IMG/VR virus record: IMGVR_UViG_3300048072_000105
Coordinates: 1-40,589 of that record
Direction: 5' to 3' (one strand)
Source: a virus
Lineage: Duplodnaviria; Caudoviricetes
Length of the DNA stretch: 40,589 nucleotides
The notes beneath the pieces were generated by a model. It worked only from the letters and a program-made list of their open reading frames with translations, was not told the DNA's origin and searched no databases. Shown here one piece after another: positions 7,341 through 40,589 of this stretch (positions are counted from its first letter, which is position 1; the number at the start of each line of letters is the position of its first letter). The position numbers and the translations under genes are program-made.

Positions 7341-7643
7341 TTACGGGGTCAGGTCCAGGGTGCCGGGAGCCGGGGCGGCCTTCTGCCAAAACAGGACGTA
7401 GGAGCCGTGCGCCATCAGGAAGGCGGCGAGCGCCTGCATGGCGACCGTCACCAAACTCGAAATGGAGTTGGTGTCCACCGGTGTCCCATTGAGCGCGCTG
7501 AACGCCAGCACGCCGAATATGGATAGAAGTGCAAGAACAAAACGCTTCCCTGCGGTGGTCTGCAAATTTCCAAACCACTTTGCGAGGCCCATGACGCTGT
7601 TCAAAATGAACGGCGAGAGAGCCACGATAAGAGCTTCAATCAT
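7341..7643 (-). CDS. Holin-like membrane protein
   Basis: 100 aa from MIEALIV with three hydrophobic segments; directly downstream of the M23 peptidase. Confidence 0.6.
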   Translation of the reverse strand: MIEALIVALSPFILNSVMGLAKWFGNLQTTAGKRFVLALLSIFGVLAFSALNGTPVDTNSISSLVTVAMQALAAFLMAHGSYVLFWQKAAPAPGTLDLTP

Positions 7644-7710
7644 AATAATGCGATGAGTTACGAATAAGTGGTGCTTCTGTGCACCGCTCCGGCCCTTCTG
7701 GGCGAGAGCG

Positions 7711-8286
7711 CTACGCGGAAAGACCCATGCGGTATTGGTAGTAACGCCAGTTGGATTTGATGAGAGTGGCAAGCGTGGCCTGGTCAGCGGCGAAGTCGCC
7801 AATGAAAAAGAGTGACGGGTCGAAGGAGCCGAGCGCTTCGTTGTTGTCAATTTTGTTGCCATCGTCGCCCACGCGATACATGCCCATGTGCGTGTGCGGT
7901 CCGGTAGAGAAGCCGGTGTTGTCTGCAATCATGATGAGTTCGCCAAGCGCCAGCTCGTCACCTTGCTTCACCAATATCTTCTCGGCATGGCAAAGGATGA
8001 TACGGGCGTAGCAGAGCTGGTCGAAGAGCTGCAATTTAGACTTAGACCGCAGCACAATTTCATTGCCGCCGCCGTTCGGCTGGTAGTCAATCCACTCCAC
8101 GTAGAAGCCATCCACCGGGCAGTAGACAGGATAGGACGTGTCCTGGAGGTGCGGCTTCGCGTCGATGCCGTTGTGCAGTTTGAACGCGGGGTTGTTGAAC
8201 TGCGCGGCGTATGCCGGGTTCGGATTACCCCAGCGCTGGGTGATTGTGTACGGCTTAAATGGGAAGTGAATTAGAAGCGGTTTCAT
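7711..8286 (-). CDS. M23-family peptidoglycan peptidase (endolysin)
   Basis: HNGID (HxxxD), ILCH and STGPHTH (HxH) zinc-binding motifs. Confidence 0.85.
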   Translation of the reverse strand: MKPLLIHFPFKPYTITQRWGNPNPAYAAQFNNPAFKLHNGIDAKPHLQDTSYPVYCPVDGFYVEWIDYQPNGGGNEIVLRSKSKLQLFDQLCYARIILCHAEKILVKQGDELALGELIMIADNTGFSTGPHTHMGMYRVGDDGNKIDNNEALGSFDPSLFFIGDFAADQATLATLIKSNWRYYQYRMGLSA

Positions 8287-8390
8287 ACCTCGTAATTATT
8301 GCACGGCTTTTTGCGTGCTATGCTTGCGGCATGGTCCTTCTAGGAATACTCGCGTTCGCAGTCTGGGGATTTTGGTCAGGCCTTGCATAT

Positions 8391-9947
8391 TTACTGAGGG
8401 CGGGAAGAGTTCGTAATCAGAGCGGCTGGACGCGGCCCGAGCGTTTTTAGCTTCTGGCCTCCGCGTTGCAGTAGGTCTCCGAGAGGCTTGGACAGGCTGC
8501 CGAGTGCCTGCGGTAGTGCCGACATAACATCGTGTTTCGCACCGGCCGCGCCAATTTGCGTGGCCGGATTATTGAGAAACTCCGCAGCCTTGGTGCCGAA
8601 GTAGTCACCGGCGAGAACGCCAAGCGGACCGGCGTGTGCTCCGGCCATTGCTCCGACCATGCCTCCGGCCATATTGCCGAGGCGTCCGCCCTTGACAACC
8701 TTTACGTCGTCCAATTTCTTGAGCCGCGTAATGGCGTCAATCAAATCGCCGCGCTGGGCGTTCAAGGGCTTCATGTCCGGCGCCACGCCTTCAATGGCGG
8801 TTTTGGCCGCTTGACCGAGCTGATACGTGGCGCTCTCGCGCAAGGCAGTATCGCGCTCGAAACCTTTGCCTATCGTCTTCCAGAAGCCGGTTTTGATTTG
8901 GTCCAAAATGGAAGGCGGCACGTCGTTGCCCCATTTCTTTATCTCTGCCTGCATTGCAGAAGTGGCTTTTTGAATAATCGCGGTTTCGTCTTCTGCCGAC
9001 GCGCCCAGATTGCGGATTTTCTCAATGGCGGGTTTGAGGACTTGGTCGGTCAGATTGATGGAATGGCTCGTATCGAGCTGAGAGAGCCGGGACTGAGCCT
9101 GCTGATCGAGCGGAGCAAGTTTGTCCTGCAAAATCGGAATAGTTTTTGAAGCGTCCAGAGTGCCGTGATCGTATCTGCCGAGGGGTGCGCGGTTGTCGAG
9201 TAGAACCTGCGCCAAGTCTTTGCCGGAGCGATTTTCATACGCACGCTGGGAAGCATTGAGATTAAGTGCACTGCTGTAAGCGTCTTTGATTCCAGCATAG
9301 GTCTTCTCGGCCTGTTGCCCGTTGAGCAACTGTCCGACTTTTCCGATGCCCATGCCTGCAAGCTTCGTCACTCCAGCCACGCCTCCGCCGGTAGCCGCTC
9401 CCAAGCCTGCGTTTACGGCTACATCCGAAAGACTACCGCCTTTGGACATACTCATTCCTGCGCCCTGAGCCGCGCCAGCTCCGACGGCGCCTAGCACACC
9501 TTCGCCGGGAATTGCGTAGCTCGCAACTTGAAGGGCGTCTCCGACCTTGTTCTCGACGCCAAGAGGAGAAACCGGCGTAGGAGCATTTTCGGGGCCTGCG
9601 GGCGAAGGAATACCCGCTGCGAATGGATCAGGTTTACCCATTGCTTTGGCGAGAAGCTGTACCGGCGTAGCGGCAAGCCCCACAAACGGCGACGCAATGG
9701 CGTTGTAGAGGCCGCTCAATCCGCTCGGCTTATTTCCCGAAGTGAGAGAATTGAATGGATCTGAAGACTTCGGTGTTGCTGCGGACTGCGCCTCTCCAAT
9801 GGGCTTTGCGCCCATCTTTTGAAGGTCGGCGAATGACACCGTGTCAGGGGTAGGTGCTGTGGCTGGTGCAGGTGATGCCTGAGCCGCTGTGTTTATCGGC
9901 TTGGCGCCCATCGCTTGCAGTTGGTCGAATGAGATGGTGTCGTTCAT
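8391..9947 (-). CDS. Putative internal virion/DNA ejection protein
   Basis: 518 aa, Ala/Gly-rich with glycine-zipper segments; position after tail genes matches podovirus ejection proteins. Confidence 0.55.
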   Translation of the reverse strand: MNDTISFDQLQAMGAKPINTAAQASPAPATAPTPDTVSFADLQKMGAKPIGEAQSAATPKSSDPFNSLTSGNKPSGLSGLYNAIASPFVGLAATPVQLLAKAMGKPDPFAAGIPSPAGPENAPTPVSPLGVENKVGDALQVASYAIPGEGVLGAVGAGAAQGAGMSMSKGGSLSDVAVNAGLGAATGGGVAGVTKLAGMGIGKVGQLLNGQQAEKTYAGIKDAYSSALNLNASQRAYENRSGKDLAQVLLDNRAPLGRYDHGTLDASKTIPILQDKLAPLDQQAQSRLSQLDTSHSINLTDQVLKPAIEKIRNLGASAEDETAIIQKATSAMQAEIKKWGNDVPPSILDQIKTGFWKTIGKGFERDTALRESATYQLGQAAKTAIEGVAPDMKPLNAQRGDLIDAITRLKKLDDVKVVKGGRLGNMAGGMVGAMAGAHAGPLGVLAGDYFGTKAAEFLNNPATQIGAAGAKHDVMSALPQALGSLSKPLGDLLQRGGQKLKTLGPRPAALITNSSRPQ

Positions 9948-9950
9948 AAG

Positions 9951-11684
9951 TTACTGGAGCTTCTGGTACGCGCCTTTCGGATTTGACGGATCAACGGGGA
10001 TGTAGATGCTGCCGTCCGGCCCGGCGTGGGCGTTGTCGATGAGGCCGCTCGCAAGTTGCGACGGCTTGAGCCCCGGAACCAAGCCCTTAACATCCAAGCC
10101 CAACGAAGCGAGTTTCACCTGGTTAACCGGGCTGATGAATGTATCTAGGGATGATGGGTCCTGTCCCATTGCCGTGCGATACGACTGAATGTTCGCGGCA
10201 ATTTTTGAAGACAAGAAGGTGGCGACGGTTTTGACGTATCCCTGGTGCTGGTCGGGGCTGTCTATCGCGCTTCCGTAGTGCTTCTGCGCTTCGCGATCAC
10301 CAAGCGCGCCCGCTCCGTATGCGTTCGCTATTTCGTTGGAGAGGAGGTCTTGCGCCTGTCCGTAGTTGTTGGCCTCTGCGCTCCCCGTCTGCGTCGCGAT
10401 GAAGTTCTTGAGATTGTTTCCGCTCTGGACCGCGCCGTTGTTGAGTGCGTTGAACAAATTGTTCGCGTCGAAGAGGTGACCGACTGCGGTATTGAGCGCG
10501 TTGATTTGCTTGCCGGTGGCGCCGGTCGTGAGGTCTTTCTGATAGCTGAGCTGAACCTTGTTTTGAGGCGTCGGAAGCGGTGCGGGCGCGTAGAGGTTGG
10601 CTCCCTGAGCTGCGGGCGCAGCACCCGAAGCGGGAGCGTTGCCGGAAGTTCCGCCAAGGGCGCCGGGCTGCGTTGGTAGCGCACTGGGTCCAGTGGGCGC
10701 TTCTGCGCCACTCGGCACCGGTCCCTTGCTTTGATAGGTGATTGGCTTCCCCGTGAGCGGGTCGAACTTGACCTGGGTGGAAGTCTGGATGCCGCGCTCG
10801 TACCCGGTGTGCGACGCATTGAAGTCGAAGTTCGGATTCTGCTGGAGCGTGTTGAGAACGAACGGCAGGCCATAGCGTGTGAGCAGCGTCGGGTCGAGGC
10901 GCCCGTCCTGCATCGCTTTGGAAACAATGTCGTTGGTGCCCTGGTTTGAGGAGAAGCCTCCGACTGTTGCTCCGGTGCCAGGATAGTAGAGCGAGCCGCC
11001 ATACGGCACGGAGATAGGTTTGTACTGCAAGTCGAGAAGATTGGACTGATACTGCGCACGGGCCTGTGCGGCGTTGGTATCGGCAGTACGGTATCCGGTC
11101 AGTGCATCAAGGCTGCGGCTTGCCGCGTCGATGGCAAGCGAGTCAGTGCGATTTTGCCGGTCGCCTTCGGCGTTGGCATAACTCACCGGCTGGCCGAGGT
11201 TGAGGTTGTTCTCCTGATGCTGCTGCTGTTGGCCGAGCAAGGTGTTGAGGTATGCGCGCTGATTTTTTTCTTCCGGCGATACCTGGAGGGACTGCGCGTA
11301 GGTATTGAAGGCATCCTTGTATGGCTGAAACGGGTCAGTCGGCGCGGCGGACAACATCTTGCCGTTGGCGTCAACATTTGCGCCGTTTGGAGTCGTAAAT
11401 GACGAAGGGGTAGGTCCAGTCGGGGCTGGGGGAGTTGTACTCCCGTAGGGGCTTGTGGGAGGTGCTGCGGGCACTCCAAGAGGCCCGTAGGCCTGTGTAG
11501 GGCCTTGGTAACTTGACGCTCCGGGCAAAGTGTTGCCTCCCGCATTTGCAGAGGTGAGCGTCGCCTTGAGATTCGGGTCAGTCGCTCCGGACGAAGAAGT
11601 GAGACCTTGAATGAACTGCTGCTTAGCTGGAGACACAAGGGTGCCTCCCGATCCGATGCTGTAGCCTGAAAGATTGAGAGCCAT
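9951..11684 (-). CDS. Putative internal virion/DNA ejection protein
   Basis: About 577 aa, Gln/Pro/Gly/Asn-rich, start at MALNLSGY; same position argument as above. Confidence 0.55.
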   Translation of the reverse strand: MALNLSGYSIGSGGTLVSPAKQQFIQGLTSSSGATDPNLKATLTSANAGGNTLPGASSYQGPTQAYGPLGVPAAPPTSPYGSTTPPAPTGPTPSSFTTPNGANVDANGKMLSAAPTDPFQPYKDAFNTYAQSLQVSPEEKNQRAYLNTLLGQQQQHQENNLNLGQPVSYANAEGDRQNRTDSLAIDAASRSLDALTGYRTADTNAAQARAQYQSNLLDLQYKPISVPYGGSLYYPGTGATVGGFSSNQGTNDIVSKAMQDGRLDPTLLTRYGLPFVLNTLQQNPNFDFNASHTGYERGIQTSTQVKFDPLTGKPITYQSKGPVPSGAEAPTGPSALPTQPGALGGTSGNAPASGAAPAAQGANLYAPAPLPTPQNKVQLSYQKDLTTGATGKQINALNTAVGHLFDANNLFNALNNGAVQSGNNLKNFIATQTGSAEANNYGQAQDLLSNEIANAYGAGALGDREAQKHYGSAIDSPDQHQGYVKTVATFLSSKIAANIQSYRTAMGQDPSSLDTFISPVNQVKLASLGLDVKGLVPGLKPSQLASGLIDNAHAGPDGSIYIPVDPSNPKGAYQKLQ

Positions 11685-14305: not shown

Positions 14306-15274
14306 CTAAGAGCCGACGCCCATTAATGTGCGGGTCATGCCGACTGATACGGAAGCGGAAGCGACAAACGGAGCTATCGTGACTCCTGCAACGACAACCT
14401 TGTTGGTGCCAGTCCAAGTGCACTGAAGGGTCGTGCTGGCGGCGGGATGTATCGCGGCATTGTTGTCGCACCAAAACTCAAAGCCGTCGCCGCCGGTGGT
14501 GTGTCCTGTCGTTCCAGCTCCCGCAGCGATGGCAACGCTTCCACCTTGAAACCAAGCCACCATCCAGCAGTTGTCGGCAACAGGGGTAATGGAAAGATTT
14601 TGAGGGGAAGAGGCGCTGGCTGAGGATGCCGCACTTCCTGTGTTATCCGCCGTAGTCGCACTTTGGCACCCGCTGTAGGAAATGGAGCCGCTGTAAAACC
14701 CGACGCCGGTAGTCGTAATCGTGACCGTATGTGCGCCACTTGCCGGATTGCCCAATGCCCAGATACCGAATTGCTCCCAACTGGCTGCGCCCACAACGCT
14801 CACCTGTTTCGTCATTGAAACAGAGTTGTAGGTGATCCCTGAAGCGTTCTGCTGTTGGTCTTCGCCGACCATCAAGTAGGGGTTTGAGCCGGTGACGGTG
14901 TGCGACCAGGTCGTCTTGTTGCCCGTGCTGTCAACAATGAACGTATCAAGGGCGATAGCGAAGCGGTACGGGGCAAAGCCGTGCGCGGAACGAAAGCCCG
15001 CAAGCTGCGCCTGCGGAAGAAGGACTACTTTGAAGGCGAAGCTCTGCGAGAACCACGCTCGGATGATGCCTTCCCAAGTGGCGAGATAGTTTTCGAGAGT
15101 GAACGAGAAGACATTCCCGTGTCTGTCGGCAATCTGCTCAAGGCGTATGCCCTCGCGCCGCCACGCTATGAGCTCCCACAGCCTGAAGACGTTGCAGACC
15201 CACGATGAAGACCACTCGAACTGCGGGCGGTATCGGTGAGCCCCGGTCAGTTTGTAGAGTAAGAGCGGCAGCAT
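14306..15274 (-). CDS. Putative virion surface/fibre-associated protein
   Basis: C-terminal ~215 aa is a Ser/Thr/Gly-rich beta domain (AIALD...WSHTVTGSNPYLMVG); tightly coupled in the operon. Confidence 0.55.
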   Translation of the reverse strand: MLPLLLYKLTGAHRYRPQFEWSSSWVCNVFRLWELIAWRREGIRLEQIADRHGNVFSFTLENYLATWEGIIRAWFSQSFAFKVVLLPQAQLAGFRSAHGFAPYRFAIALDTFIVDSTGNKTTWSHTVTGSNPYLMVGEDQQQNASGITYNSVSMTKQVSVVGAASWEQFGIWALGNPASGAHTVTITTTGVGFYSGSISYSGCQSATTADNTGSAASSASASSPQNLSITPVADNCWMVAWFQGGSVAIAAGAGTTGHTTGGDGFEFWCDNNAAIHPAASTTLQCTWTGTNKVVVAGVTIAPFVASASVSVGMTRTLMGVGS

Positions 15275-15277
15275 AAT

Positions 15278-17014
15278 TTATTTGTTTTTGGCGAACACGG
15301 CGTAGATGCGAACGTCGGTGGTGCTGGTGGCGCATTGCGCGGTCCAGTTCGTGTTTGAGCTTGTCTGCGGAATGGGAACCGGCAAAGCAAAGCCCACGGG
15401 CGGCTGTCCGCCGTTGCTTTGAAGCGAGAAGAGTACCGAGCCTGCGGTCGTGTCCCGGAAGTCGATGCGCGTGTTGGTGCTCGCGCTCGTATTGCTGATG
15501 ATAAGCATCACCAGGTCGTTGAAGACGCCTGCGCCTCCAGCGGTAACAATGGTTGTCTCGGAAGTGGAAGCGGAGATAGTCGTCGTCTGCGTGCCGGTGA
15601 GGTCGCGGATGGTGCCAATGAGGGCAACCTGGCGGCCGAACTTGTCCACCATCGCGCCGGTTAAGTTTCCGTCTGAAGCGGCAGAGGGCAGCGCGGTTTT
15701 TGCAATACCACCCTTGTAGGTGGCTCCTGAGGGTACTGCGGAGCCGGTAGCTCCGTGCCCCCAATTTGCAATGCCGGTGTTATCGTTGGCGAGGGTAACG
15801 CGCTGAGAGCCGGTACCCGTCGCGCCGTTGCCCATGAGGACGGTCACGCCGTTTACTTGTGCGACGTTGACGGCGCTGTTGGCATCGGGCGTTACCAGGA
15901 GCTTGTTCGTGAGCTGCGGCTGATCGGTAGCGATAACCACGCGCAAGGTGCCTGCCGATTTCACTCCTGAGTTGGTGTCGGTCGTCGTACCTGCGAGCTG
16001 TGCGACATTCGTAGAGAGGTTGGTCGCCGATACGGTTACGGTAGCGGCCGAGGCGGCAAGGTTTACGTTGAAGTTGTTCGTGTTTGCCGCGGAGTCCTTA
16101 AGGTCAACGCGCAACCCTCCGGCGGTCGTCATGGAGAGCTGATTAATCTGGCCGGTCGAAAAAGTCGGGGCGTTGGTCGTTACGGAGGCACCGGCGAGAT
16201 GCACCTTGGTAGTGCCGAGCGCCGTTCCCTGGGACACTACGGGCGCGGCTATCGTTGCGAGATTTCCGCCGCTTTCAAGCGCAAGCAACGAGGTGTTGAG
16301 GTTGGTGCCTGCGTTCGCCGTTATGGTGCCGGAGACCGGCTGCGTTACTGCCGAACCGTCTACCTTCCATGCGGTCGTGTTCGCGGTGTTGCCGGGCTGA
16401 ACGGTCCAGGTGCCGCCTTGGTTGGCGGTAATGGTTCCCGACACCGGCTGAGTGACTGCTGAGCCGTCCACTTTGACTGCCGTGGCATTCGCGCCGGTGT
16501 TAGCGAGGGTTACCTGAAGCGGAGCGGCTGAGGTGCCCACTTCGGTGCCGCTCGCGTTCTGGAGGTTGACGAACAGCGCGCGCTTGGAAGTCATGCCGAG
16601 GGCGGCAGAACGTCCATCGGTCACGGTGTCTATGGTGCTGTGGTAGAACGCCATCGACGGGGTGCCGCTAGAGGTACCCGCGGTGAAGGCACTATTGTCG
16701 GTCGTGCCGCCGACTGAAATAGAACCGGTGACACGCAAGTTGCCCGCAAGATCAGTTGAGAGAAGCACCTGGTTGCCTTCGGTGTAGGAAGGCGCCGCGG
16801 CGTTCGCTATCGCGGGGAGTACGCCAAGGTTGGTCGCGCCGGGTGCTGCGTTGTTGTTGGTCTTGCTGCCCGAGACGGTGACGCTGGATATGGAAACATC
16901 CGCGTACATCCGATGCGTGGTCGGGTCTACATAAATGGCGGTAGGGGTAACGCCGTCAACGCTCGAAACGCCGAAGACAGCGGGGATAAAATTTTCGTCT
17001 CGTTTAGATTGCAT
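15278..17014 (-). CDS. Putative tail fibre/spike-like virion protein
   Basis: 578 aa, T/A/S/G/N-rich, with the internal repeat KVDGSAVTQPVSGTITAN. Confidence 0.6.
   Translation of the reverse strand: MQSKRDENFIPAVFGVSSVDGVTPTAIYVDPTTHRMYADVSISSVTVSGSKTNNNAAPGATNLGVLPAIANAAAPSYTEGNQVLLSTDLAGNLRVTGSISVGGTTDNSAFTAGTSSGTPSMAFYHSTIDTVTDGRSAALGMTSKRALFVNLQNASGTEVGTSAAPLQVTLANTGANATAVKVDGSAVTQPVSGTITANQGGTWTVQPGNTANTTAWKVDGSAVTQPVSGTITANAGTNLNTSLLALESGGNLATIAAPVVSQGTALGTTKVHLAGASVTTNAPTFSTGQINQLSMTTAGGLRVDLKDSAANTNNFNVNLAASAATVTVSATNLSTNVAQLAGTTTDTNSGVKSAGTLRVVIATDQPQLTNKLLVTPDANSAVNVAQVNGVTVLMGNGATGTGSQRVTLANDNTGIANWGHGATGSAVPSGATYKGGIAKTALPSAASDGNLTGAMVDKFGRQVALIGTIRDLTGTQTTTISASTSETTIVTAGGAGVFNDLVMLIISNTSASTNTRIDFRDTTAGSVLFSLQSNGGQPPVGFALPVPIPQTSSNTNWTAQCATSTTDVRIYAVFAKNK
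16313..16474 (-). repeat. Two copies of an 18-codon repeat, 108-nt period
   Basis: 16421-16474 and 16313-16366 both encode KVDGSAVTQPVSGTITAN. Confidence 0.9.
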
Positions 17015-17017
17015 ACA

Positions 17018-17545
17018 TTAAGTGGCGGACTGCTTAGCGATTAATTCTCCCCATGCCCGTTCGAACGCTTCGCGCTGGTCTTTGAGAAGTCGGCGCTCCT
17101 CGTTGATACCCATCTGCTCGCGGGCGAGCTGCTTCCGGTCTTCGATGATGTCAGCGTGGACAGCCTTGAGGTCGCGCTTTGCCTCGTTAATTTCCGCCAG
17201 CTTCGCGCTAAGAGCCGCATCAGCCGATGCCATGCGCTCGCGAAGGAGTAGAGCAAAGGCCGTGAGGTCTTTACTGAGGGCGGAGAGAAGGTTTGCGTAG
17301 CCGCGGAGTTCAACGCCGTACTTGGTGAGGGCTTCGTGGTTCGCGGCAACTTCGTCCAGGGCCGTGCGGCTTTCGTCGAGGATTTTGGCGATGCGCTCAA
17401 CGGCTTCTTTTTCGCGGCCGGTGAGGTATTCCTCCGTGCTCCCTTTGAGCGTTTCGAGCGCGGCCCTCCCTTCCACGATGGCGGTGTGGATTTTCGAGAG
17501 TTCTTCAACTGCGCTGAATTTTTCATGGTCTAGGGTGATGTTCAT
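17018..17545 (-). CDS. Coiled-coil hypothetical protein
   Basis: 175 aa with helical heptad character, in the structural operon. Confidence 0.6.
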   Translation of the reverse strand: MNITLDHEKFSAVEELSKIHTAIVEGRAALETLKGSTEEYLTGREKEAVERIAKILDESRTALDEVAANHEALTKYGVELRGYANLLSALSKDLTAFALLLRERMASADAALSAKLAEINEAKRDLKAVHADIIEDRKQLAREQMGINEERRLLKDQREAFERAWGELIAKQSAT

Positions 17546-17606
17546 ATGCCGGGTGAGATTTCGAGGTCCCGTGTGGCGTGCACTGTCAAGACAACCCGGC
17601 TGAGGG

Positions 17607-18110
17607 CTACGCGAGTAGCTTCTCCAAGTCTGCCTTGCTTTTCCGGGCGTCGAACTTGATGCCGCGCTTGTTGAGCTCGGCGATTACTTCCGCCTTGTCT
17701 TTGTATCCAGTGGCGGATACCGGCGGCGTGTCTGTGCCTTCGGCGACCTTGTTGAGGTCTTCGACTTTCTTGACCACTGCGTCGGCCGGGGTCTGGACGG
17801 GAGTTCTCGCCTCCTCGTACACCTCGGTCATAATCTGCGCCTTGAGGCCTGCAATGGCTCCATCGTCCCACAAGGGGCGGTCGGTGCCGCGGCCGTCGGT
17901 CTCTTTGGCGTCGCGTACCGGCGCCTTCTGGATAAGTATCTGGCGCGCAAGGTGCGTCGCGAGGTGCTCACCGACTGTTAAAGGGAACAGCTTCGTCTCG
18001 CCCGCGCGAAGAGGAAACTGGCGGCCATCGTACATGGCGCCCATTTCTGGGGTGAAATCAAAGCTCGTGATGTTCGTGATCCGAACTATTTTTGTGTCGT
18101 TCTCGTTCAT
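17607..18110 (-). CDS. Phage protein with C-terminal HeH/LEM-like domain
   Basis: KAEVIAELNKRGIKFDARKSKADLEKLL; start at MNENDTK. Confidence 0.6.
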   Translation of the reverse strand: MNENDTKIVRITNITSFDFTPEMGAMYDGRQFPLRAGETKLFPLTVGEHLATHLARQILIQKAPVRDAKETDGRGTDRPLWDDGAIAGLKAQIMTEVYEEARTPVQTPADAVVKKVEDLNKVAEGTDTPPVSATGYKDKAEVIAELNKRGIKFDARKSKADLEKLLA

Positions 18111-18204
18111 GATGATTGAGTGACTTGATAATGCCGGGCTTCGCCGTTCCCGGTGCAGTTCGACACTGCATTCTGCCTCCCGGATTGAGAGGCAGAGGCA
18201 ATGG

Positions 18205-18906
18205 CTAACTGAGCGTGACAAACGCCTGCTGCGCTTTGTCCACGTTGGTGCTGGCCGATATGACTACTGCGACGATCTGCTCGTCGAAGCCGCCCTTGCC
18301 GGTAGTACCGATAGTTGCTTCGCCAGCGGTCGAGCCGCCGGTAACGAGGGACTTGCCTATGGTGCCTGCGGTGTCAGAGATGACAGCGCCGATACCGCGG
18401 GTCAAAGCCCAGCCGTAATCGCCGGATGCGAACGCGACCTGGACCACGCCGACCGCGTTCTGGACCTTCGTGGAGGTCAGAGACTTGCGGACGAGGTTGT
18501 TGGTCCAAATCTTCATCGTGGAGTCGGTGGAGAGCGCCGTAGCGAGCGCGTCCTCCGGGTAGAGCTCCAGGGTGTCGGCGGTGTTGGTCTTGATCTTGGC
18601 GACCTGGCCTTCACCGGTGCCGTTGTCGATGTGGACCGTGCCATCATCGAACGCGCCTACCGTCCACCCGGCCGAAGCCTTAGTGATGAAGACGGTGCGG
18701 CCCTGCGAGTCGTTCGAAGACGAGATAGTCGTTCCGACCGACGTAACCGCTGCGGGAACAACCACCATGCCTGCGGTGCCGACTGCGGCGCTCGCCTTGA
18801 CATAGACCCACTCGCGGCCGTCCGGAGTGACGGCGCGCTGGCCGAGTTTGAACTCGCCCTGGTTCTGCGTGGTTTGTTTGACGCTGCGGAAAGTAATCTG
18901 ATTCAT
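18205..18906 (-). CDS. Putative capsid decoration/minor structural protein
   Basis: LGQRAVTPDGREWVYVKA and GDYGWALTRG pattern; downstream of the major capsid gene. Confidence 0.55.
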   Translation of the reverse strand: MNQITFRSVKQTTQNQGEFKLGQRAVTPDGREWVYVKASAAVGTAGMVVVPAAVTSVGTTISSSNDSQGRTVFITKASAGWTVGAFDDGTVHIDNGTGEGQVAKIKTNTADTLELYPEDALATALSTDSTMKIWTNNLVRKSLTSTKVQNAVGVVQVAFASGDYGWALTRGIGAVISDTAGTIGKSLVTGGSTAGEATIGTTGKGGFDEQIVAVVISASTNVDKAQQAFVTLS

Positions 18907-18976
18907 AAGTGTTGATTGCAGCCTTTGGCTCTTAACCTCCGGCCATTCGGGAGCAGCGCTCCCTTAATTAAGTAAT

Positions 18977-27323: not shown

Positions 27324-27324
27324 A

Positions 27325-28391: not shown

Positions 28392-28428
28392 CGGAATTTT
28401 GTAGCAAAAAAAAGCCCCCCGAAGGAGG

Positions 28429-31849: not shown

Positions 31850-32038
31850 TTAAATGGCGGCGCTTAAGCCAGTAACTTTTCCGAGGCGAGCAAGAAGCTC
31901 ATCAACACTCGGTACATCTTGGTAAGCAGGGTTGTGTGCTCCGCACTCCACCTGCACGACACCGTCTCCACCGCTATCCTGCACTCCGATAAAACCCGTA
32001 CCCTCGCACTCGCACTGCACCGCAATCTTTTTGTCCAT
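31850..32038 (-). CDS. Small Cys-containing protein
   Basis: 62 aa from MDKKIAVQCECEGTG...VECGAH; first gene after the promoter. Confidence 0.55.
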   Translation of the reverse strand: MDKKIAVQCECEGTGFIGVQDSGGDGVVQVECGAHNPAYQDVPSVDELLARLGKVTGLSAAI

Positions 32039-32350: not shown

Positions 32351-33154
32351 TCAGTGCATTTCGCACCGCTCAATTTTCTTTGTGTCCATGAGCGAGGACA
32401 ACTGCTCGAACTGCACGGCCGCGACACCGTCAGTGAGAAACGCCACCACCGTGTCGGCGGGTATGCCGTTCTCGACTGCGAGCATCGCTTCGAGCGGGTT
32501 GCGGCAGACAAAGAGGTCGCCGCCTTCCGTCACCCGTTCGCAATTCCAGATAACCGATGTCGGGTCGAAGTTGTGGAACACAAGCCGGGGGCTCTGCTCC
32601 TTTTCAACGGCGATGCCGACATAGGCGACCAGGGTGCCTTCGGATGTCCGGATCGGAACGGCGAACCGGCCGCGGAGCACGCCTTTGCTGGCGTACCCGG
32701 CGCCGAACACCGTGGCCGTTTCCGGAGAGATACCGAGCTCCTGCACCTTCGGATGCGTGGCCTCCAAATATTGCAACGGTTGGAGGGGCTTTTCCTGCGC
32801 ACCCGTCGGGGCTGGGGGAGTTGTGGCCCGCTTCTTGCTAACTGTACTGGTAACAGTACCCGTACTGTTCAGTACCGTTCCGAAGCGTTCGGCCAGTGCG
32901 TCGGCCGCGGCTTTATTGCCGATGCCTTTGATGTGCGCGTACAGCGCAATGCAATCGCCGCCGGTCTTGGCGCCGAAGCAGTAGAACAAACCTTTCTCCG
33001 GAGTGACGACAAGCGCGCGGTCGCCGCCGCTTTGGCACGCGGGGCATGGGCCGCGAAGTTGCGCGCCCGCCGGAGTCATTTTCAAGCCGAGCATTTGCAC
33101 GGCCTGTTCGATGGAGACGCGGGTTTTCAACTCCGCGAAATCTACGAAGGGCAT
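32351..33154 (-). CDS. CHC2 zinc-finger primase-like protein with degenerate TOPRIM-like C-terminus
   Basis: RGPCPAC...FYCFG...GDCIAL, GRFAVPI; AGGAGG RBS; terminator at about 32329-32350. Confidence 0.75.
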   Translation of the reverse strand: MPFVDFAELKTRVSIEQAVQMLGLKMTPAGAQLRGPCPACQSGGDRALVVTPEKGLFYCFGAKTGGDCIALYAHIKGIGNKAAADALAERFGTVLNSTGTVTSTVSKKRATTPPAPTGAQEKPLQPLQYLEATHPKVQELGISPETATVFGAGYASKGVLRGRFAVPIRTSEGTLVAYVGIAVEKEQSPRLVFHNFDPTSVIWNCERVTEGGDLFVCRNPLEAMLAVENGIPADTVVAFLTDGVAAVQFEQLSSLMDTKKIERCEMH

Positions 33155-33353: not shown

Positions 33354-33587
33354 ATGGGTAAGGTGAAGGAAACCGCGGAAGCGGAGGAGCGGCGCGGGAA
33401 GCGCCCCGTTTACAATGTCCGCGCGCGGCAGGGTCCGGCAGCGGACGGTACTCCGAGCGAGTACTTCAGTACGGTGGGTGCGGTCTGGCCGTGGGAGAAG
33501 GGCGACGGCTTCGTGTTGAAGCTCGACTTCGTCCCGCTCAACGGCGACGGCTCGTTCCTGCTCGTCCCGCCGAAGGACAACGAATAA
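33354..33587 (+). CDS. Small plasmid-type protein (DUF736-like, possibly ssDNA-binding)
   Basis: YFSTVGAVW..EKGDGFVLKLDFVP motif; AGGAG RBS. Confidence 0.55.
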   Translation: MGKVKETAEAEERRGKRPVYNVRARQGPAADGTPSEYFSTVGAVWPWEKGDGFVLKLDFVPLNGDGSFLLVPPKDNE

Positions 33588-33832: not shown

Positions 33833-34804
33833 CTACTTGAGTGGGCTGTCGAGATGCAGGTCGGGATGACCGGCTCTCTGCCAGCCTCGGGTGAATAGAT
33901 CGGGCTTGGGCTTCGGAGATTCAGAAATGCTTTTCATGGACGGCATGACGGCGAAGGCTACATATGCCGCGCCTTTATCGTTCGTGAGCTGCATGATGAG
34001 CGCTTTGCGGCGGTCAACATCGTGCTGGGTCGTGCAGACGACCAAGTGGATGAGATTCGGCAGTCCCCAGTGCGCGGCGTAGAGCTTCTTGCGCTCTATC
34101 TCCTGCATCGAGAGAAACTTCTTGAGAAAACTCGGCCGTGTAAGGGTCGGCCGCTCAAGCTCGGCTTTGTTCTCAGCTTCGAGGCTGAAAAAGCGGAAGC
34201 CGCTCGGGAGCTCAACGCCGAAAGGACCGTGGCTGTCGTTGGTGTAGTCGTAGGTGATGCGGTCGCTGCCGGTCTTGTAGACGTGGGAGATTGAGACAGG
34301 GAGCATGCGCGGCTTTTCGGACTTCAGGGTTGCCGCCGGAAAGCGAGGCGACAGGCGAATATCGTCCCACCACACCATCTTGACGCCCGCGGCCTGCGAG
34401 CCCAGCTCAAGCGAGCTGACCGTGTCGATGATGAGCATTGCATGGTCGAAAAGTTTCTCGTCTCCGAATTGAACTTCGGTATGGAGTCCTTCATCCTTCA
34501 TGACGCGCACGCCTTTGTCGGCGAGCTCGTAGATTTGATAGCGCGAGTTGGGGAACGGCTGCCGGTAGAAGTCGTCCGGGATAAAGAAGTAATTGTTTGG
34601 CTGGCGCGTGAGGAGTTTCAACCGGCGGCGCGTTTCGACTACATTCATGCCGTTGAGGGCCGCGATGGTGTCCGGGCGCAAGCGGCGGTAACGCGCAAAA
34701 TGGCGAAAAAGATTTCGCAGGTCGTGCGCGGTCGGCTCAATCTCGAACGGCTTGCCGTCCTTATCGAGCACCGGCGCGTTGCTATGTCGGCTGAGGCGTT
34801 CCAT
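33833..34804 (-). CDS. Replication-relaxation (Replic_Relax/MOBC-type) relaxase
   Basis: wHTH N-terminus (RRRLKLL...IYELADKG), FDHAMLI, PFGVE...FFSLEAE and FLKKF pattern; directly downstream of a T4CP-like gene. Confidence 0.7.
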   Translation of the reverse strand: MERLSRHSNAPVLDKDGKPFEIEPTAHDLRNLFRHFARYRRLRPDTIAALNGMNVVETRRRLKLLTRQPNNYFFIPDDFYRQPFPNSRYQIYELADKGVRVMKDEGLHTEVQFGDEKLFDHAMLIIDTVSSLELGSQAAGVKMVWWDDIRLSPRFPAATLKSEKPRMLPVSISHVYKTGSDRITYDYTNDSHGPFGVELPSGFRFFSLEAENKAELERPTLTRPSFLKKFLSMQEIERKKLYAAHWGLPNLIHLVVCTTQHDVDRRKALIMQLTNDKGAAYVAFAVMPSMKSISESPKPKPDLFTRGWQRAGHPDLHLDSPLK

Positions 34805-34911: not shown

Positions 34912-36738
34912 TCAGCGTTCCCAGTCGGTCGGTGCTTGGGGCTGGGGACTGGTGGGTGCTGGCGGAAGCGCGGAAGTTTGCTTCGCTATTTCCGGCGCCA
35001 CGCTGAAACGATTCCGCATGTCGGCAAGGATGGTTTGGAACTGCGCTTCGCTCATGCGCGAGTAATTCTGAAAGTCGATAGGCGGCACCGTAAGTTCAAT
35101 AGGCTCCTTTCCCGTTACCGATACCATCCACTTCGGGTAGTTGGCGGACGGCCAAAACTGTATGGCCACTTTCCTCAGTGCGTTGCGGACCGTTTCGTCG
35201 AGGTCCTGCACCTCATGGGTGGCAATGGTGAGGCTGACGTTCTGCTTGCGGGCCTTTTCCGTCAGGTCGCGGATATGCTCGTCGTGTTTGATATAGTCCT
35301 GTGCCTCGTCGATGTAGGCGAAGACGGGAAGCCGAGAGCTTTTCGGCACGAACATGCGCTCTTCGGTGGCCTGTAAGAGCTTGGCGATGAAGAAGCGGCC
35401 GAACGGCTCCTTGGCGCTCTTGAGCATCCCTTCCATCGTGTTGATGAGGATGACCTTCGGCTCTTGGAGGAGCTTGAAGAGGTCGAACTTGTTGCGCGGA
35501 TTGGTGAACATGGACAGAAACAGGTCATCACTGGTGAAAGCGGAGAGCCGCGCCCGCACCGCGCCGATGCTCGGGCCGTAGCTACCCTCAAACATATCGG
35601 CGGTCAGAAACCGGCGGTCCGTCTCGCTGAGCGTACTCAGGTGTTGCTCGTGCTTGGCGAAGCCGTCTTTCGAGAGAAAGTCCTTGAAGGTGAGTACGGT
35701 GGCGTCGGGGATGAGCATGACCGCGCGGAGAACGGTTTTAAGGATGCCTTCCATAAAGCCGGATGTCTCGGCTCTGACGAGGGACTGCATGAAGAACGTA
35801 ATCATTTCCTCCGTGCCGCGCTGGAGCGTCACGCGCTGGCGGGAGGTTAGCGAGGCCATCAGCTCTTTGTTGAAGTCGAAGATGTTGAGGGAGAGCGGAT
35901 GGTCGGGGTCGTACTCGATGTAGATAAGTTTGCCGTGAAGTGATCCGCCCGGAGCGAAGTCTGCGAGCCGCGCGATGTCGGGGATAAGTTGGTTCTGGCT
36001 GTCCATCACGAAGAGGGATGCTTCGCCTTTAACGACGCGCTGCAAGTCTGCATGTATTTGCGCCGATAGGAGCGTGGTCTTGCCGGAGCCACTGGACGCT
36101 ACGATGAACTGATGACGGAAGCGCTGCTCGTCGGTGAAGCCGTAGGACACCCTTTTCCTGAACAGCTCTTTCAGTGGTTCTTGCCAGACCGAAGAAGCCT
36201 CGCGGAACGATTTCATTTTCGTCCAGTCATAGCCATCTATCGCCCGTCCTCCGAGTTCCGTGTCCTGGGTGGTTATGATGATGCGCTTGAATTCGCTGAA
36301 GGGCGCAATGTCCCAATACTGCGCCTGAAAGGGGCCGGGCGCCGGAACATAGGATTCAAGAATATCCTCAACCTTGCCGAGCGCGAGATTGTCTGCCTGC
36401 TCGGCTTCAAAAAGAAGTTGCTGCATTTCCCGTTCTTCTCTGCCGGGGTCCCACAGCTTCCACCTGATGTGGTCCGTACCACCCCAAAAGATTGCGCCGA
36501 GGAATACTGTCGTGAGAACTCCGAGCGAGAGCGCAAGCCAACCGGGGAACAGACCCCAGAGTCCCATGTAGAAAATAATGGCGCCGACCCCGAAGACTGC
36601 ATACGCAATGTCCCGGTGAAGCCTGTTGTGGTCGCCGCCGTAGGCCGCCCAGTTGTACAGCGTGTTGTACGCGACAAAAACGCCGGTCAGGCCGCCCAGG
36701 ATGAAGACAATGCTGAGGATGAAGCCCCAAAAGGTCAT
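34912..36738 (-). CDS. Type IV coupling protein-like ATPase (VirD4/TraD-like)
   Basis: Three N-terminal TM segments, RFRHQFIVASSGSGKT Walker A, AYIDEAQ Walker B, ARKQNVSLTIATH. Confidence 0.8.
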   Translation of the reverse strand: MTFWGFILSIVFILGGLTGVFVAYNTLYNWAAYGGDHNRLHRDIAYAVFGVGAIIFYMGLWGLFPGWLALSLGVLTTVFLGAIFWGGTDHIRWKLWDPGREEREMQQLLFEAEQADNLALGKVEDILESYVPAPGPFQAQYWDIAPFSEFKRIIITTQDTELGGRAIDGYDWTKMKSFREASSVWQEPLKELFRKRVSYGFTDEQRFRHQFIVASSGSGKTTLLSAQIHADLQRVVKGEASLFVMDSQNQLIPDIARLADFAPGGSLHGKLIYIEYDPDHPLSLNIFDFNKELMASLTSRQRVTLQRGTEEMITFFMQSLVRAETSGFMEGILKTVLRAVMLIPDATVLTFKDFLSKDGFAKHEQHLSTLSETDRRFLTADMFEGSYGPSIGAVRARLSAFTSDDLFLSMFTNPRNKFDLFKLLQEPKVILINTMEGMLKSAKEPFGRFFIAKLLQATEERMFVPKSSRLPVFAYIDEAQDYIKHDEHIRDLTEKARKQNVSLTIATHEVQDLDETVRNALRKVAIQFWPSANYPKWMVSVTGKEPIELTVPPIDFQNYSRMSEAQFQTILADMRNRFSVAPEIAKQTSALPPAPTSPQPQAPTDWER

Positions 36739-36822: not shown

Positions 36823-37584
36823 CTACTCCATGAGCCTCTGCACCAGTTCGGTGTGCGCCGTGGTGTTGGGGGTCAGGCGGGCATACTGCGCGAGGGTCTG
36901 CGCGTCCTCGAACGTGCATCGCTGTCCGGTTTTTTCCTCTACCTGAAGCGCACCCTGTCGGAGTTTGGGTGGAAGTTCGTCGAGGAAGTTGACGCCAGCG
37001 ATAAGGCGTTCTTGGCGGATGAGTGCCATGTGAAACATCCGACCGTAAAAGCCAAAGTCAGGGACAATCACCTGTCCTTTAGCCTGTCCGATAAGGAGCG
37101 AGCCGAGCACGAAGGCGTCGAAGTCCCCGAGCGTGGCGCGGTCAATCTTCGCGACTACTGAGCCCTTGAAGGAGAAGTTCGTGGGATTGCAGAGCACCGC
37201 CTTGAGGACAGGCGAGAGCAACAAGTCCTCTATCGTGGCGAGCGCTTCGAGCGAGCCGGGGTCCGGGTACTGCGGAAGTTTGTCGAGGCGCCGCGCGCCG
37301 GAGAGCAGCAACTTCGCAAGCGCCCGTCTGCCGTTGCGCACGGTCAGCGTTTCACCGCCTTCCGGTGAGGCGGAGTACACGGTGGCGGCAAAGTCGCGGG
37401 CGCGTTTGTAGTCTATTGCCTTCAGCGGGTTGAAATGGTGGACGGCCGGATCAAAAAGTTTTGCCTGCGGAAACTTAGCGAGAAAAGCGTCGGCGACGGG
37501 GCCGTCGTCAATGAGAAGAAAGCCGCTTGGTGTATCAAGGAGCTGTTCTGTTTTGTCGGCTGTGCCGATGAGTAGCCGGTTCAT
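36823..37584 (-). CDS. Degenerate coupling-protein-like protein
   Basis: LLIGTADKT (eroded P-loop), FLLIDDG, FDP...FNPL and RDFA resemble the T4CP nucleotide-binding domain; no intact Walker A. Confidence 0.5.
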   Translation of the reverse strand: MNRLLIGTADKTEQLLDTPSGFLLIDDGPVADAFLAKFPQAKLFDPAVHHFNPLKAIDYKRARDFAATVYSASPEGGETLTVRNGRRALAKLLLSGARRLDKLPQYPDPGSLEALATIEDLLLSPVLKAVLCNPTNFSFKGSVVAKIDRATLGDFDAFVLGSLLIGQAKGQVIVPDFGFYGRMFHMALIRQERLIAGVNFLDELPPKLRQGALQVEEKTGQRCTFEDAQTLAQYARLTPNTTAHTELVQRLME

Positions 37585-37687
37585 GTGGCTGGAGCAGTAG
37601 AGCCCGAGGGTTTTCAGGAATGGCTGCGCCAGCCCTAAAAAGGTACTGTCCTCCAACATTGTACAACGGGACTGGGAGGATGGTGCG

Positions 37688-37909: not shown

Positions 37910-38025
37910 ATGCGCAAAGCCGCCCAATTGCGGTGAGCGGCTGTGCTGGATTTTTCGCCACCGGCAGAGGCCGGGAATATGTACACCGCTCCGTTACTCG
38001 GATGCGGAAGGAGCAAAGAGCATCT

Positions 38026-38086
38026 GACAAAACTGTAACACGAAAAGTTTTGTCGGCTGTTGTCGCGCTCGTCGCGAAAAGTTTTG
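38026..38086. repeat. Inverted plus direct repeat cluster
   Basis: GACAAAACT (38026-38034)/AGTTTTGTC (38046-38054) inverted; CGAAAAGTTTTG at 38041-38052 and 38075-38086. Confidence 0.75.
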
Positions 38087-38411
38087 AAAAACTGTTCCGC
38101 CCACTGTGTTGTCGGTGGTCGCGAAGCGCCACGACCATTTCCCTTTTGCCCCGAGCTATGGCTGAGGCCTTGTAGTGGTAACTCAAGGACACGCCTACGC
38201 GAGTGGGCGCACTACTCAGACGAAGGAGGAGTAGAAAAGGGAAATGGTCGTGGCGTAAGCCCGACAACCAGTGTGGCGGAATCGTTGAAATGTAAGGGAA
38301 ATGTCGCGATATTTTCGCAACTGCACCTGTCTACAGTAGATAGGTCTGTAGGCAGGTGCTGTAAGCATAGAAAAGGGGCGGCTAGGTGTGCACCCCAACC
38401 GCCCCAACTCC

Positions 38412-38651
38412 CTATTTGGGAGCAAACCAGTCTGCCGTCACCGACAGGCCGTGTGCCTCAAAGTATGCGAGGACTTCACTGACGCGCCATACGGGGTGAG
38501 CGTTGCGCGACTTGCCCAGCTTCCGACACTTTGGAAAAGAATCGGCAGCGTAGTCAGGGTCGAACATCAGTCTCCAAGTATGGGCGCGGCTGTAAGGCCA
38601 CCCCATTCTCCGAAGGCCCTTCCAGTCCACAATCAGAGGTTTCGTAAACAT
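38412..38651 (-). CDS. AlpA-family excisionase/regulator
   Basis: YSRAHTWRLM...FPKCRKLG...VWRVSEVLAY; near the integrase. Confidence 0.8.
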   Translation of the reverse strand: MFTKPLIVDWKGLRRMGWPYSRAHTWRLMFDPDYAADSFPKCRKLGKSRNAHPVWRVSEVLAYFEAHGLSVTADWFAPK

Positions 38652-38895
38652 CGTTTAGCTCCGAAGTAGTGGAGCATCGCGATGTCCACGGTTACCACCG
38701 ATGGAACGGTGGAACTGTAGCAGAGCAGTCCGGTCGGGAAAAGCGCGGCGGTCTCACCGGCGGTTGTGCATGGTGCCTCGCCGTTCCTCTAAAGGCAGAA
38801 TATTGCACTGTGAGCAGAACATTTCGTGAAACGGGAACGGAATAGTTCTGCCGAAAAAGGGCATAGTTTTTCCGGTCAGGCGGGAGGGGTAAGCA

Positions 38896-39456
38896 ATGGC
38901 AGCGCGACCAAAGATAACCGGCAGAAGTTCTTCACTCGCGGCCGTCTTCGTGCAGGCCATCATTCCGCGTAGTTCGGATGCCGACCAGCTCCAAGAGGGC
39001 CTGGAGAAGTTCGGGATTGCGCGGGACCAGTGCGCGTACTGCGGTGCACGGGGTTCGGACCTCGACCACTTCTTCGCAATCGTGAAGAACAAGCGGCCGT
39101 CCGGATACTTTCATTGCGCCCGGAATCTGGTGCCGTCATGCGGGACCTGTAACCAGTCGAAGGGCGGGCACCACTGGGAAAAGTGGATGCTCGGCACCGC
39201 AAAGAACTCTCCGCGGACACGCGGGGTACCGGATGTCGAAGAGCGCGCCGAGAAGCTCCGCAAGTTTGAAAAGTGGGGTGGGCTGACGCCGGTGAGTGAG
39301 GATGACCTGCGCGCGGCCATCGGCGCGAAACGGTGGGAGGCCTACTGGGAGCGGCTCGAAGAAATAAAACGGCTCATGGTGTCGGCCCAGGAAGAAGCGG
39401 AGAGCATCCGGGAAATCCTGGAATCGAAGTTCGGCGACGCAAAAGCCCCGGCCTAA
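38896..39456 (+). CDS. HNH endonuclease
   Basis: CAYCG...DLDHFF...NLVPSCGTCNQSKG; GGAGG RBS; inserted between xis and int in the opposite orientation. Confidence 0.85.
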   Translation: MAARPKITGRSSSLAAVFVQAIIPRSSDADQLQEGLEKFGIARDQCAYCGARGSDLDHFFAIVKNKRPSGYFHCARNLVPSCGTCNQSKGGHHWEKWMLGTAKNSPRTRGVPDVEERAEKLRKFEKWGGLTPVSEDDLRAAIGAKRWEAYWERLEEIKRLMVSAQEEAESIREILESKFGDAKAPA

Positions 39457-40589
39457 GCGGCAGTCGCGACCGAGGGGGGCTCTGCCGAAAGAATTTTTGT
39501 GAGCTGCGCTTCCCATAGGTCCACAGCTTTCCGCATCTCGTCCTGGTAGGTGTGGCGGTTGTAGATGCCGACCAGTCCCCCGGTCGTGCCGGTGATGTGA
39601 TTGAGGAGCTTCTCGACGACGTGAATGGGCGTCCCGAGCTTCGCCTGGTTGGTGGCGAATGTTCTGCGGAGGTCGTGCAGGGTCCAGTCGGAAGTTTCGC
39701 TCGCTTCGTCCAGGATGGCTTTGGACTTGCTCCAGCCGTTGAAGGGAGTGTCCCGGCCGCGTGCCGGGAAGAGAAGGCCCGGAGCGGCGTTGCCGACTAC
39801 TTCGGAGGCCATCGCTCCAAGCGGGAACGTGTGCTCATTGCCGTTCTTGCACAGCTCGCTTGGGAGCGTGCAGCGGTTGTCCGCAAAGAACTCTCCCTGG
39901 AGTGCAGCAATCTCGCTGCGGCGTTGGCCGGTCAGCATGAGAAGTTTCACGATCCGCCGGAACGATGCGGGGAGCTTGTTCGTGTCGTCTTCGCACGCGA
40001 GCCAAATGCGTTTCAGCTCTTCGTCGGCCAGCACCCGTTCGCGGGTCTTGGTGCGGCGCCCGCTGATGCCCATGACGGGATTGTCGGTAATGTACCGGCG
40101 CTTCTGGCACCAGTTGAAGAAGCCCCGAGCGGATGCGAGGGCGTGGTTGTACATGGCCGCGGTTTTGATGCGGTCCAGCCTGCGGACAATCTCCCCGTGG
40201 GACACGTCGGCAAGCTGGCCTTGGAAGTCGAAGAAGCGGTCCAGGTAGTACTCGTAGTCGCTGACGGTGTTCTCCCGGCGGGCGTTCCGCTTCTCCTCCA
40301 GGAAGACCTTGCGGGCCTCCTGAAAGCTGAGGGCCTGCGGGCGGAGCTTCCCGAGCGTCTTCTCGGCAAGCATCCGCTTGGCCTCTGTGCGGGCCTCAGA
40401 GAGCGAGAGAACGGGATAGCGGCCGATGGTGCGGCGGGAGTTTGAAACGTTGAGGATGAACGTCTTGGAGCCGCCCTGCGACACGCGCACGCCGAACGAA
40501 CTCAAGCCGCTGTCCCAATAGTCGAGCTGTCCGGCTTCCGGCGTTGGAAGCGAACGAAGCAGAGCATCACTGAGAGCAACTTTAGGCAT
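39453..40589 (-). CDS. int: Tyrosine integrase (P4-like, with arm-binding domain)
   Basis: N-terminal YWD..FGVRVS.GGSKTF arm-binding domain; catalytic TGQRRSEI, K, HDLRRT, LLNH and GIYNR motifs. Confidence 0.95.
   Translation of the reverse strand: MPKVALSDALLRSLPTPEAGQLDYWDSGLSSFGVRVSQGGSKTFILNVSNSRRTIGRYPVLSLSEARTEAKRMLAEKTLGKLRPQALSFQEARKVFLEEKRNARRENTVSDYEYYLDRFFDFQGQLADVSHGEIVRRLDRIKTAAMYNHALASARGFFNWCQKRRYITDNPVMGISGRRTKTRERVLADEELKRIWLACEDDTNKLPASFRRIVKLLMLTGQRRSEIAALQGEFFADNRCTLPSELCKNGNEHTFPLGAMASEVVGNAAPGLLFPARGRDTPFNGWSKSKAILDEASETSDWTLHDLRRTFATNQAKLGTPIHVVEKLLNHITGTTGGLVGIYNRHTYQDEMRKAVDLWEAQLTKILSAEPPSVATAA

Follow-up and report, generated by a model that had tools for sequence, protein, structure and literature searches.

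Can one genetic element spread both as a virus and by conjugation? This question is raised by IMG/VR record IMGVR_UViG_3300048072_000105, a Caudoviricetes sequence of 40,589 nucleotides that we analysed at full length and call the window; it is the whole virus record. An earlier note on this DNA had read positions 7341..40589 as a virion-producing prophage carrying a relaxase and a coupling protein, that is, a hybrid of a phage and an integrative and mobilisable element (IME). The hybrid reading holds: judging from its sequence, the whole window forms one integrative element, a mobilisable-element arm (integrase, relaxase and type IV coupling protein (T4CP)) fused to an intact virion block, and this element may travel by both routes.

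The arm and the virion block form one element

The arm comprises the following features (window coordinates; strand):

39453..40589 (minus): tyrosine integrase with an Arm-DNA-binding domain (PF00589, PF13356; PHROG 1)
38412..38651 (minus): small DNA-binding protein, likely the excisionase, as it adjoins the integrase; kept in provirus G001
38085..38290 (no strand): double-stem hairpin, candidate origin of transfer (oriT) or single-strand origin (z = -10; profile; covariation)
36823..37584 (minus): degenerate soluble T4CP-like protein (Atlas VirD4/TraD clusters; common to other hybrids; dN/dS 0.13)
34912..36738 (minus): T4CP (TrwB fold, three transmembrane (TM) helices, Walker A/B)
33833..34804 (minus): predicted Replic_Relax / MOBC-type relaxase (winged helix plus nuclease domain; D190, E209, E211)
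33354..33587 (plus): small conserved arm protein of 77 amino acids (DNA similarity to G001, G024, L225 and L240)
32351..33154 (minus): CHC2 zinc finger plus truncated DnaG-like part (PF01807; TIGR01391 positions 8-159 of 414)
31850..32038 (minus): small open reading frame (ORF) with a Cys/His zinc finger seen in its sequence; present in G001 and G018
29524-29862 (minus) and 30066-30665 (plus): two divergent arm-associated ORFs, relatives of which adjoin relaxases in hybrids and phage-less islands
28429..29289 (minus): ArdC anti-restriction protein (PF08401, PF18818)

The packaging, capsid, short-tail and lysis operon described before was recovered, with the terminase large subunit (TerL), portal, capsid, an SU10-type adaptor, an M23 peptidase and a 3-TM holin-like ORF:

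26415..26963 (minus): likely terminase small subunit, from its position; relatives lie upstream of TerL in free phages
24047..25630 (minus): TerL (PHROG 675, E 5e-83; PF05876)
21727..23736 (minus): portal protein (PHROG 156)
20701..21462 (minus): likely scaffold protein, from its place between portal and capsid; kept in free relatives
19631..20689 (minus): major capsid protein (PHROG 9953; Atlas capsid clusters, TM-score 0.85)
14306..19576 (minus): head accessory and tail fibre-like genes, assigned by synteny with G001 and free relatives
12686-14077 (minus): likely nozzle, from position and conservation
11695-12660 (minus): short-tail adaptor (PF24175, SU10 adaptor)
8391..11684 (minus): two likely DNA-ejection proteins, from position; 85-90% identity in G001
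7711-8286 (minus): M23 peptidase of the lysis pair (PF01551)
7341-7643 (minus): 3-TM holin-like ORF of the lysis pair (TM prediction)

The element itself was confirmed, and its boundary had to be moved: it takes in the whole window, about 41 kb, rather than starting at position 7341. In four sequencing runs (X1, X3, X11 and X12) it was assembled as one 40,984-bp contig that continues 232 bases past position 1 and 163 past position 40589, so the element reaches a little past the first position of the window. In two runs in which it was fragmented (X14 and X15), depth was flat across both halves. Because these six runs may be where the DNA came from, we took them as evidence of unity, not of independent occurrence. 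The relaxase protein is also recorded on a contig of up to 2.28 Mb, indicating that an integrated form exists.

An internal attachment (att) site or junction would have split the window into two elements; there was no convincing repeat and no coverage break inside it. A 23-nt repeat at 11416/32802 was considered as an internal att site and rejected, as it sits within two coding regions. Short joints seen in the sequencing runs, with sides of about 20 bases, were put down to other organisms. No tRNA was found in the window and no Rfam family matched it.

Provirus G001 is colinear with the window (TerL 97%, capsid 93% and relaxase 78% identity). Ratios of non-synonymous to synonymous substitution (dN/dS) between the two ranged from 0.03 to 0.29 in 19 genes from both halves (the pair at 30066-30665 was left out), values that place both halves under purifying selection. 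The head, tail and lysis sets are complete, with dN/dS below 0.3.

Coupling protein, relaxase and CHC2 protein

Profile and structure searches bore out the T4CP label. The protein has three N-terminal hydrophobic TM helices and Walker A/B motifs; its structural model (pLDDT 91) gave top Foldseek matches that were all TrwB (E 2e-9), ahead of HerA. Homologues matched PF10412 (TrwB_AAD_bind) in 24 of 65 cases and PF01935 in 29 of 65, and hydropathy indicated that the TM helices are kept in 9/12 hybrids. A sequence search of the PDB with the T4CP gave no match. The neighbouring gene had been called a degenerate T4CP, in agreement with its Atlas feature matches to VirD4/TraD clusters (0.91-0.92).

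The proposed relaxase of the window had no direct Pfam match, so the expected PF13814 (Replic_Relax) assignment rests with its homologues, 8 of 41 of which matched (best E 3e-8); NCBI gives a close relative from a hybrid the name replication-relaxation family protein. Across the 41 homologues D190 and E209 are invariant and E211 is at least 90% conserved, which fits the DEE metal motif that MOBC relaxases carry in a restriction-enzyme-like fold, as described in the available text of PMC6736028. The model has a winged helix at residues 17-109, with MarR-type matches (Z up to 7.6, rmsd 2.1, 77 aligned residues), and weak matches to PD-(D/E)XK nucleases (E above 0.001); Foldseek returned nothing at E 0.001 or better. 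On these grounds the protein is a predicted Replic_Relax / MOBC-type relaxase.

The CHC2 protein had been called primase-like. It has a CHC2 zinc finger (PF01807), and a complete DnaG catalytic core is missing: it covers just the first 159 of 414 DnaG model positions (TIGR01391), the family alignment shows no conserved acidic motif, TOPRIM residues included, and two of nine members end early. It probably has no primase activity. In G013, G016, G018 and G020-G024 the gene after CHC2 is of DUF932 type (seven by similarity, G016 by Pfam); the window has no such gene there.

The ORF scans of the window yielded no VirB/Trb mating-pair gene, helicase or polymerase, as had been reported, and the T4CP is the sole TM protein of the arm. 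The window thus has an integrase and no mating-pair genes of its own, as an IME does. The accompanying statement that it has no phage initiator does not strictly stand, as the product of 3641-4450 falls in the NCBIfam family 'phage replication initiation protein, NGO0469 family', a name that is annotation only.

The arm is joined to many virion families

Many genomes hold the two halves together within one att pair. Scanning viral contigs for the T4CP, we found 14 loci, G001 included. A relaxase was present in all 13 other viral records (weakest E 0.003) and a terminase downstream of the arm in 11 of the 13; the other two are a fragment (G017) and an island that adjoins an ordinary prophage (G015). 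G003 is a further hybrid with arm and terminase, and a metagenome scan gave 15 loci, mostly short. PHROG 2, 38, 979 and 675 are represented among the hybrid terminases, whose identity to the window terminase is 12-16%; the capsids belong to PHROG 267, 1357, 10 and 9953, and G019 has a tape measure. ArdC recurs alongside the arm. Two hybrids, G016 and G024, have direct terminal repeats, the mark of a circular molecule.

The CHC2 marker was matched in 19/401 genomes of the family of G009, an alphaproteobacterial metagenome-assembled genome, and in 2/401 across the class. Among 20 chromosomal loci, 6 have a terminase, 1, which is the DNA of G002 again, has tail genes, and 13 have neither, some of these loci being cut by contig ends. 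We searched seven chromosomal regions for att sites and obtained three clear pairs, a weak one in G1065 and no clear pair in the other three. The clear pairs lie at tRNA genes and enclose arm and virion block together: G1152 (47 bp, 47.1 kb), G864 (63 bp, 47.5 kb) and G1205 (39 bp, 49.2 kb). In G009 a 39-bp att pair spans 40.3 kb, again with both inside. The window capsid was not found in the 401 genomes of the G009 family, a search run with no positive control.

Several side observations concern these loci. tRNA-Leu(TAA) serves as an integration site in G864:C2 (43585-43672 and 91078-91166, both ends called as tRNA) and L006 (7824-7910). Beside the G009 att site lie what we take to be photosynthesis and carbon-fixation genes, labelled from their sequence (L136 740-16386). 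The G009 terminase is interrupted, and terminase and portal are split in G1205. G002 / L232, on a 4.4-Mb contig, has the arm with tail and ejection genes, is broken by an insertion sequence, lacks terminase and capsid, and adjoins an ordinary HK97-type prophage.

Each half also occurs alone. Free relatives of the virion block (G004-G006; capsid 69-81% and TerL 67-72% identity to the window) are podovirus-like, 38-42 kb long, 39-40% GC and arm-less; G005 and G006 carry primase/helicase-type genes of their own, with no match in any hybrid. Hybrid units measure 36-51 kb. A Cpn60 chaperonin is encoded by free relatives and the TM7 phage discussed below (G004 26985-28583, G006 36702-38279, L261 15183-16625), and by no hybrid.

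For the arm, distant relaxases were found in 19/401 genomes of the order of G010; the 19 regions carry serine or tyrosine recombinases and defence cargo, and none of them matched the terminases of the hybrids. Genes for the relaxase, T4CP and CHC2 protein are also found on a plasmid that has no phage genes. The presence of the relaxase/T4CP pair in phage-less islands and a plasmid makes mobilisation its natural reading. Four phage-less islands (L145 4386-4913, L146 15141-15677, L147 3143-3658 and L159 3724-4266) have a small conserved gene without a Pfam match just upstream of the T4CP gene and also encode an intact soluble T4CP-like ATPase; this set could be a reduced transfer system.

How many joins took place? 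The earlier note had proposed a synteny survey for a stable link between the arm and this capsid clade. We reject such a link: T4CP was found in 0/31 close virion relatives, and the arm joins unrelated terminase families. The 31 were longer viral records with a related capsid or terminase, 6 of them at least 90% complete; both controls matched. Terminase identity to arm-less relatives is 72-76% for the window, 62-64% for G021 and up to 76% for G024, and these three terminases are unrelated to each other. Mutually unrelated terminases that each have close arm-less relatives imply at least three separate joins and give no support to descent of all hybrids from one ancient phage lineage. An arm of predicted alphaproteobacterial mobilisable-element type has therefore joined phages at least three times. 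G021, G022 and G023 share one virion clade, and their T4CPs are scattered in the T4CP tree. In that tree the hybrid label needs four changes and a single clade was marginally rejected (p-AU 0.0475; a quick tree with long branches).

A conserved hairpin accompanies the arm

The stretch at 38085-38290 folds as a double stem (z = -10). A profile of this hairpin matched 24 of 133 sequences, all arm-bearing (hybrids and phage-less islands), and none of the arm-less phages. Covariation in its inner stem consists almost wholly of compensatory exchanges between Watson-Crick pairs, and the stem can fold on both strands; both features point to a structure formed by DNA. In most hybrids the soluble T4CP-like gene has long inverted repeats close by, including cases in which it has been relocated past the lysis genes; in G019, G1152, G864 and G1205 hairpin and gene are found together on the far side of the virion block. 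The hairpin may be an oriT. A role as oriT, single-strand origin or promoter would each imply a single-stranded phase. A second conserved non-coding stretch (32082-32198), downstream of the CHC2 gene, is present in G001, G002 and, weakly, L005.

The translation signature of the virion genes hints at a foreign host

A Shine-Dalgarno (SD) match precedes 6/142 operonic virion genes of hybrids compared with 20/35 flanking host genes, 8/77 genes in free relatives and 20% of random 16-mers; genes are not independent in these counts, and a further count gave the same trend. Capsid GC content at third codon positions (GC3) is 0.82-0.85 in hybrids versus 0.22-0.58 in free relatives. Avoidance of SD sites in the virion genes, as in the low-GC free relatives, hints at a foreign donor host, and its presence in every captured virion block suggests that host jumps took place. 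In GenBank, the capsid is matched best, and the portal solely, by a phage assigned to TM7/Saccharibacteria, DolZOral124_53_65 (MG269973.1); this phage is distant, at 20-32% identity to the window capsid, portal and adaptor. Because this phage itself uses SD sites (31/35), we did not accept non-SD starts as proof of a donor in the candidate phyla radiation.

Two routes of spread, and the alternatives

From its anatomy, unity and conservation, all of which were observed, we infer that the element moves by two routes, in virions and by conjugative mobilisation, and we give this reading, including the mechanism that follows, a probability of about one half. The integrase and its small partner would excise the whole unit as a circle, and the relaxase would nick it at or near the conserved hairpin. 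The membrane-anchored T4CP would then feed the nicked strand into the mating channel of a helper element, with ArdC shielding the incoming strand. Rolling-circle replication by host enzymes would start from the same nick, taking the place of the free relatives' primase/helicase genes, and the terminase, portal, capsid, short-tail and lysis genes would package the ~41-kb genome and release it in podovirus-type particles.

Several points weigh against this reading. CagE_TrbE_VirB, the mark of a VirB4-family helper, had no match in five of five host genomes of unknown completeness. A phage replisome organiser is kept beside the arm in G021 and G023, so that the rolling-circle step is not general. 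A crude scan, run without a positive control, found no lipobox (spanin-like) ORF in the window, which is odd for a phage that has to lyse a diderm host, and the virion genes avoid the SD sites that host genes use. Rather than an oriT, the hairpin might be a single-strand origin or a promoter. Finally, the window's own att sites and host lie beyond the record ends.

The arm might instead be a replication and integration module of the phage and nothing else, as the earlier note had also allowed: the relaxase would nick for rolling-circle replication, the ATPases and CHC2 protein would assist, and there would be no conjugation. The loss of the free relatives' primase/helicase genes and the lack of a helper VirB4 in the five host genomes fit this idea, as do the Bacillus phages compared below, whose FtsK and Replic_Relax genes are annotated in this way in the accessible parts of their descriptions; Pfam links Replic_Relax to plasmid replication as well as relaxation (PMC3424549, in the text available). 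However, the T4CP has a TrwB fold and keeps its membrane anchor in most hybrids, the CHC2 protein is incomplete, ArdC is found repeatedly alongside the arm, and G021 and G023 have an initiator of their own beside it. The kept anchor and the replisome organiser in particular weaken this alternative, which we regard as possible but rather improbable.

A second alternative starts from the translation signature. The conjugative arm would again and again take up whole virion programmes of phages that infect another phylum (perhaps Patescibacteria) and shuttle them between that host and alphaproteobacteria: the prophage would rest in an alphaproteobacterium, the virion genes would be tuned to a non-SD host such as a patescibacterial epibiont, and the arm would move the genome from one kind of cell to the other. 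SD sites are absent from some Patescibacteria. Consistent with the idea, SD sites are avoided in the virion blocks of all hybrids (6/142) despite their high capsid GC3, no spanin-like ORF turned up in the crude scan, and capsid and portal find their GenBank match in the TM7-assigned phage. An arm without virion genes, L084 (8294-11773), carries a 1159-amino-acid surface protein with S74 and Ig-like domains, a kind of protein typical of Patescibacteria. Yet the TM7 phage is a distant match that uses SD sites, SD avoidance may be simply inherited, and non-SD starts can work in alphaproteobacteria. We therefore hold the shuttle to be doubtful. An element that rests as a prophage in one host and makes its particles in the other would be a new class of mobile element, a prospect that we rate no higher; were it real, the prophages would point to unknown pairs of epibiont and host, and might serve as weapons kept in store against the epibiont.

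Alternatively, the element could be a mobilisable island with phage genes as cargo, conjugation being its sole route and the particles non-infectious or devices for gene transfer or killing. The arm does take varied cargo, and several hybrids are decayed or partial (G002, G009 and G1205). However, full head, tail and lysis sets are under purifying selection, unit length stays at 36-51 kb, near the 38-42 kb of free relatives, and two hybrids are circular; we find this reading unlikely. A chance tandem of an IME and an unrelated prophage is largely refuted, for although true tandems exist (G015 and G002 lie beside ordinary prophages) and arm and virion block each occur alone, the window has one integrase, one att pair surrounds each of four hybrids (G009, G1152, G864 and G1205), gene order is fixed, and hairpin and soluble T4CP gene lie beyond the virion block in G019, G1152, G864 and G1205.

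Cargo and flanking genes

The remaining features of the window are:

38896..39456 (plus): HNH-like ORF (weak PF01844 match, below cut-off)
27726..28391 (minus): HEPN (Swt1-like) cargo gene at the junction of arm and virion block (PF18731); not in G001
27325..27654 (minus): VRR-NUC nuclease (PF08774)
6803-7279 (plus): ORF that we take to be Vsr-like from its sequence
6021-6803 (minus): HNH nuclease (PF01844)
4990-6024 (plus): C5 methyltransferase (PF00145)
3641..4450 (plus): NGO0469-family phage early protein (NF046043, above cut-off)
366..2241 (plus): DS-2 anti-phage pair, patatin-like phospholipase and nucleotidyltransferase (NF053870 and NF053871, above cut-off)

The DS-2 pair is terminal cargo and is missing from G001. 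Relatives of the 3641-4450 product (72-73%) lie at the same end of the G009 and G1204 hybrids. The C5 methyltransferase, the convergent HNH nuclease gene and the presumably Vsr-like ORF (4990-7279) resemble a restriction-modification cassette, which is also in G001.

Significance and comparison with known systems

It is customary to regard phages and conjugative elements as distinct vehicles of gene spread, and the known intermediates give up one route on gaining the other. Here, some twenty elements keep both gene sets within a single integrative unit, a combination that arose several times. Should transfer be confirmed, a phage could enter cells without a receptor for its tail; host jumps would then be accounted for, and defences at the cell surface evaded. 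The foreign translation signature provides a lead to the still unknown hosts of a large group of uncultured phages. A partial hybrid in a 4.4-Mb contig (G1006) indicates that cultured carriers may exist for direct tests. A full-text literature search, covering few subscription journals and no supplements, found no published description of such hybrids, and none of the GenBank phages matched the window relaxase or T4CP.

CloDF13 and other MOBC-type mobilisable plasmids and IMEs resemble the arm in their integrase, MOBC-type relaxase, own T4CP and lack of mating-pair genes; the hybrids described here differ in that the same att pair also encloses a full set of virion and lysis genes. Hitchers with a coupling protein of their own have been described, with CloDF13 named, and phage co-integrates are expected to be limited by capsid size (PMC11389934, in the text available). 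Compared with the co-integrates of that account, the hybrid arm replaces the early region of the parent phage, and unit length is kept.

The nearest precedent, as far as the accessible texts go, is a set of Bacillus phages (Pony, Novomoskovsk, Bolokhovo and RBClin15), which are whole phages with an FtsK/SpoIIIE translocase and Replic_Relax; Novomoskovsk and Bolokhovo also carry a VirB2-like gene, and the authors read FtsK and Replic_Relax as serving plasmid replication, segregation or injection (PMC3853050, PMC9658697, PMC11526630). Where these phages have an FtsK-type ATPase, the hybrids have a TrwB-type T4CP, ArdC and the conserved hairpin, and by the same partial accounts the hybrid arm differs further in being common to phage-less islands and joined to many virion families.

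The TM7 phage DolZOral124_53_65 and G004-G006 have related capsid, portal and adaptor proteins and, unlike the hybrids, no arm. Phage-plasmids and P1-derived mobilisable plasmids likewise attest to gene flow between phage and conjugation systems. According to the available part of bioRxiv 2025.08.29.673033, P1-like elements with a relaxase or oriT have lost essential phage genes; by contrast, the hybrids keep both gene sets and integrate.

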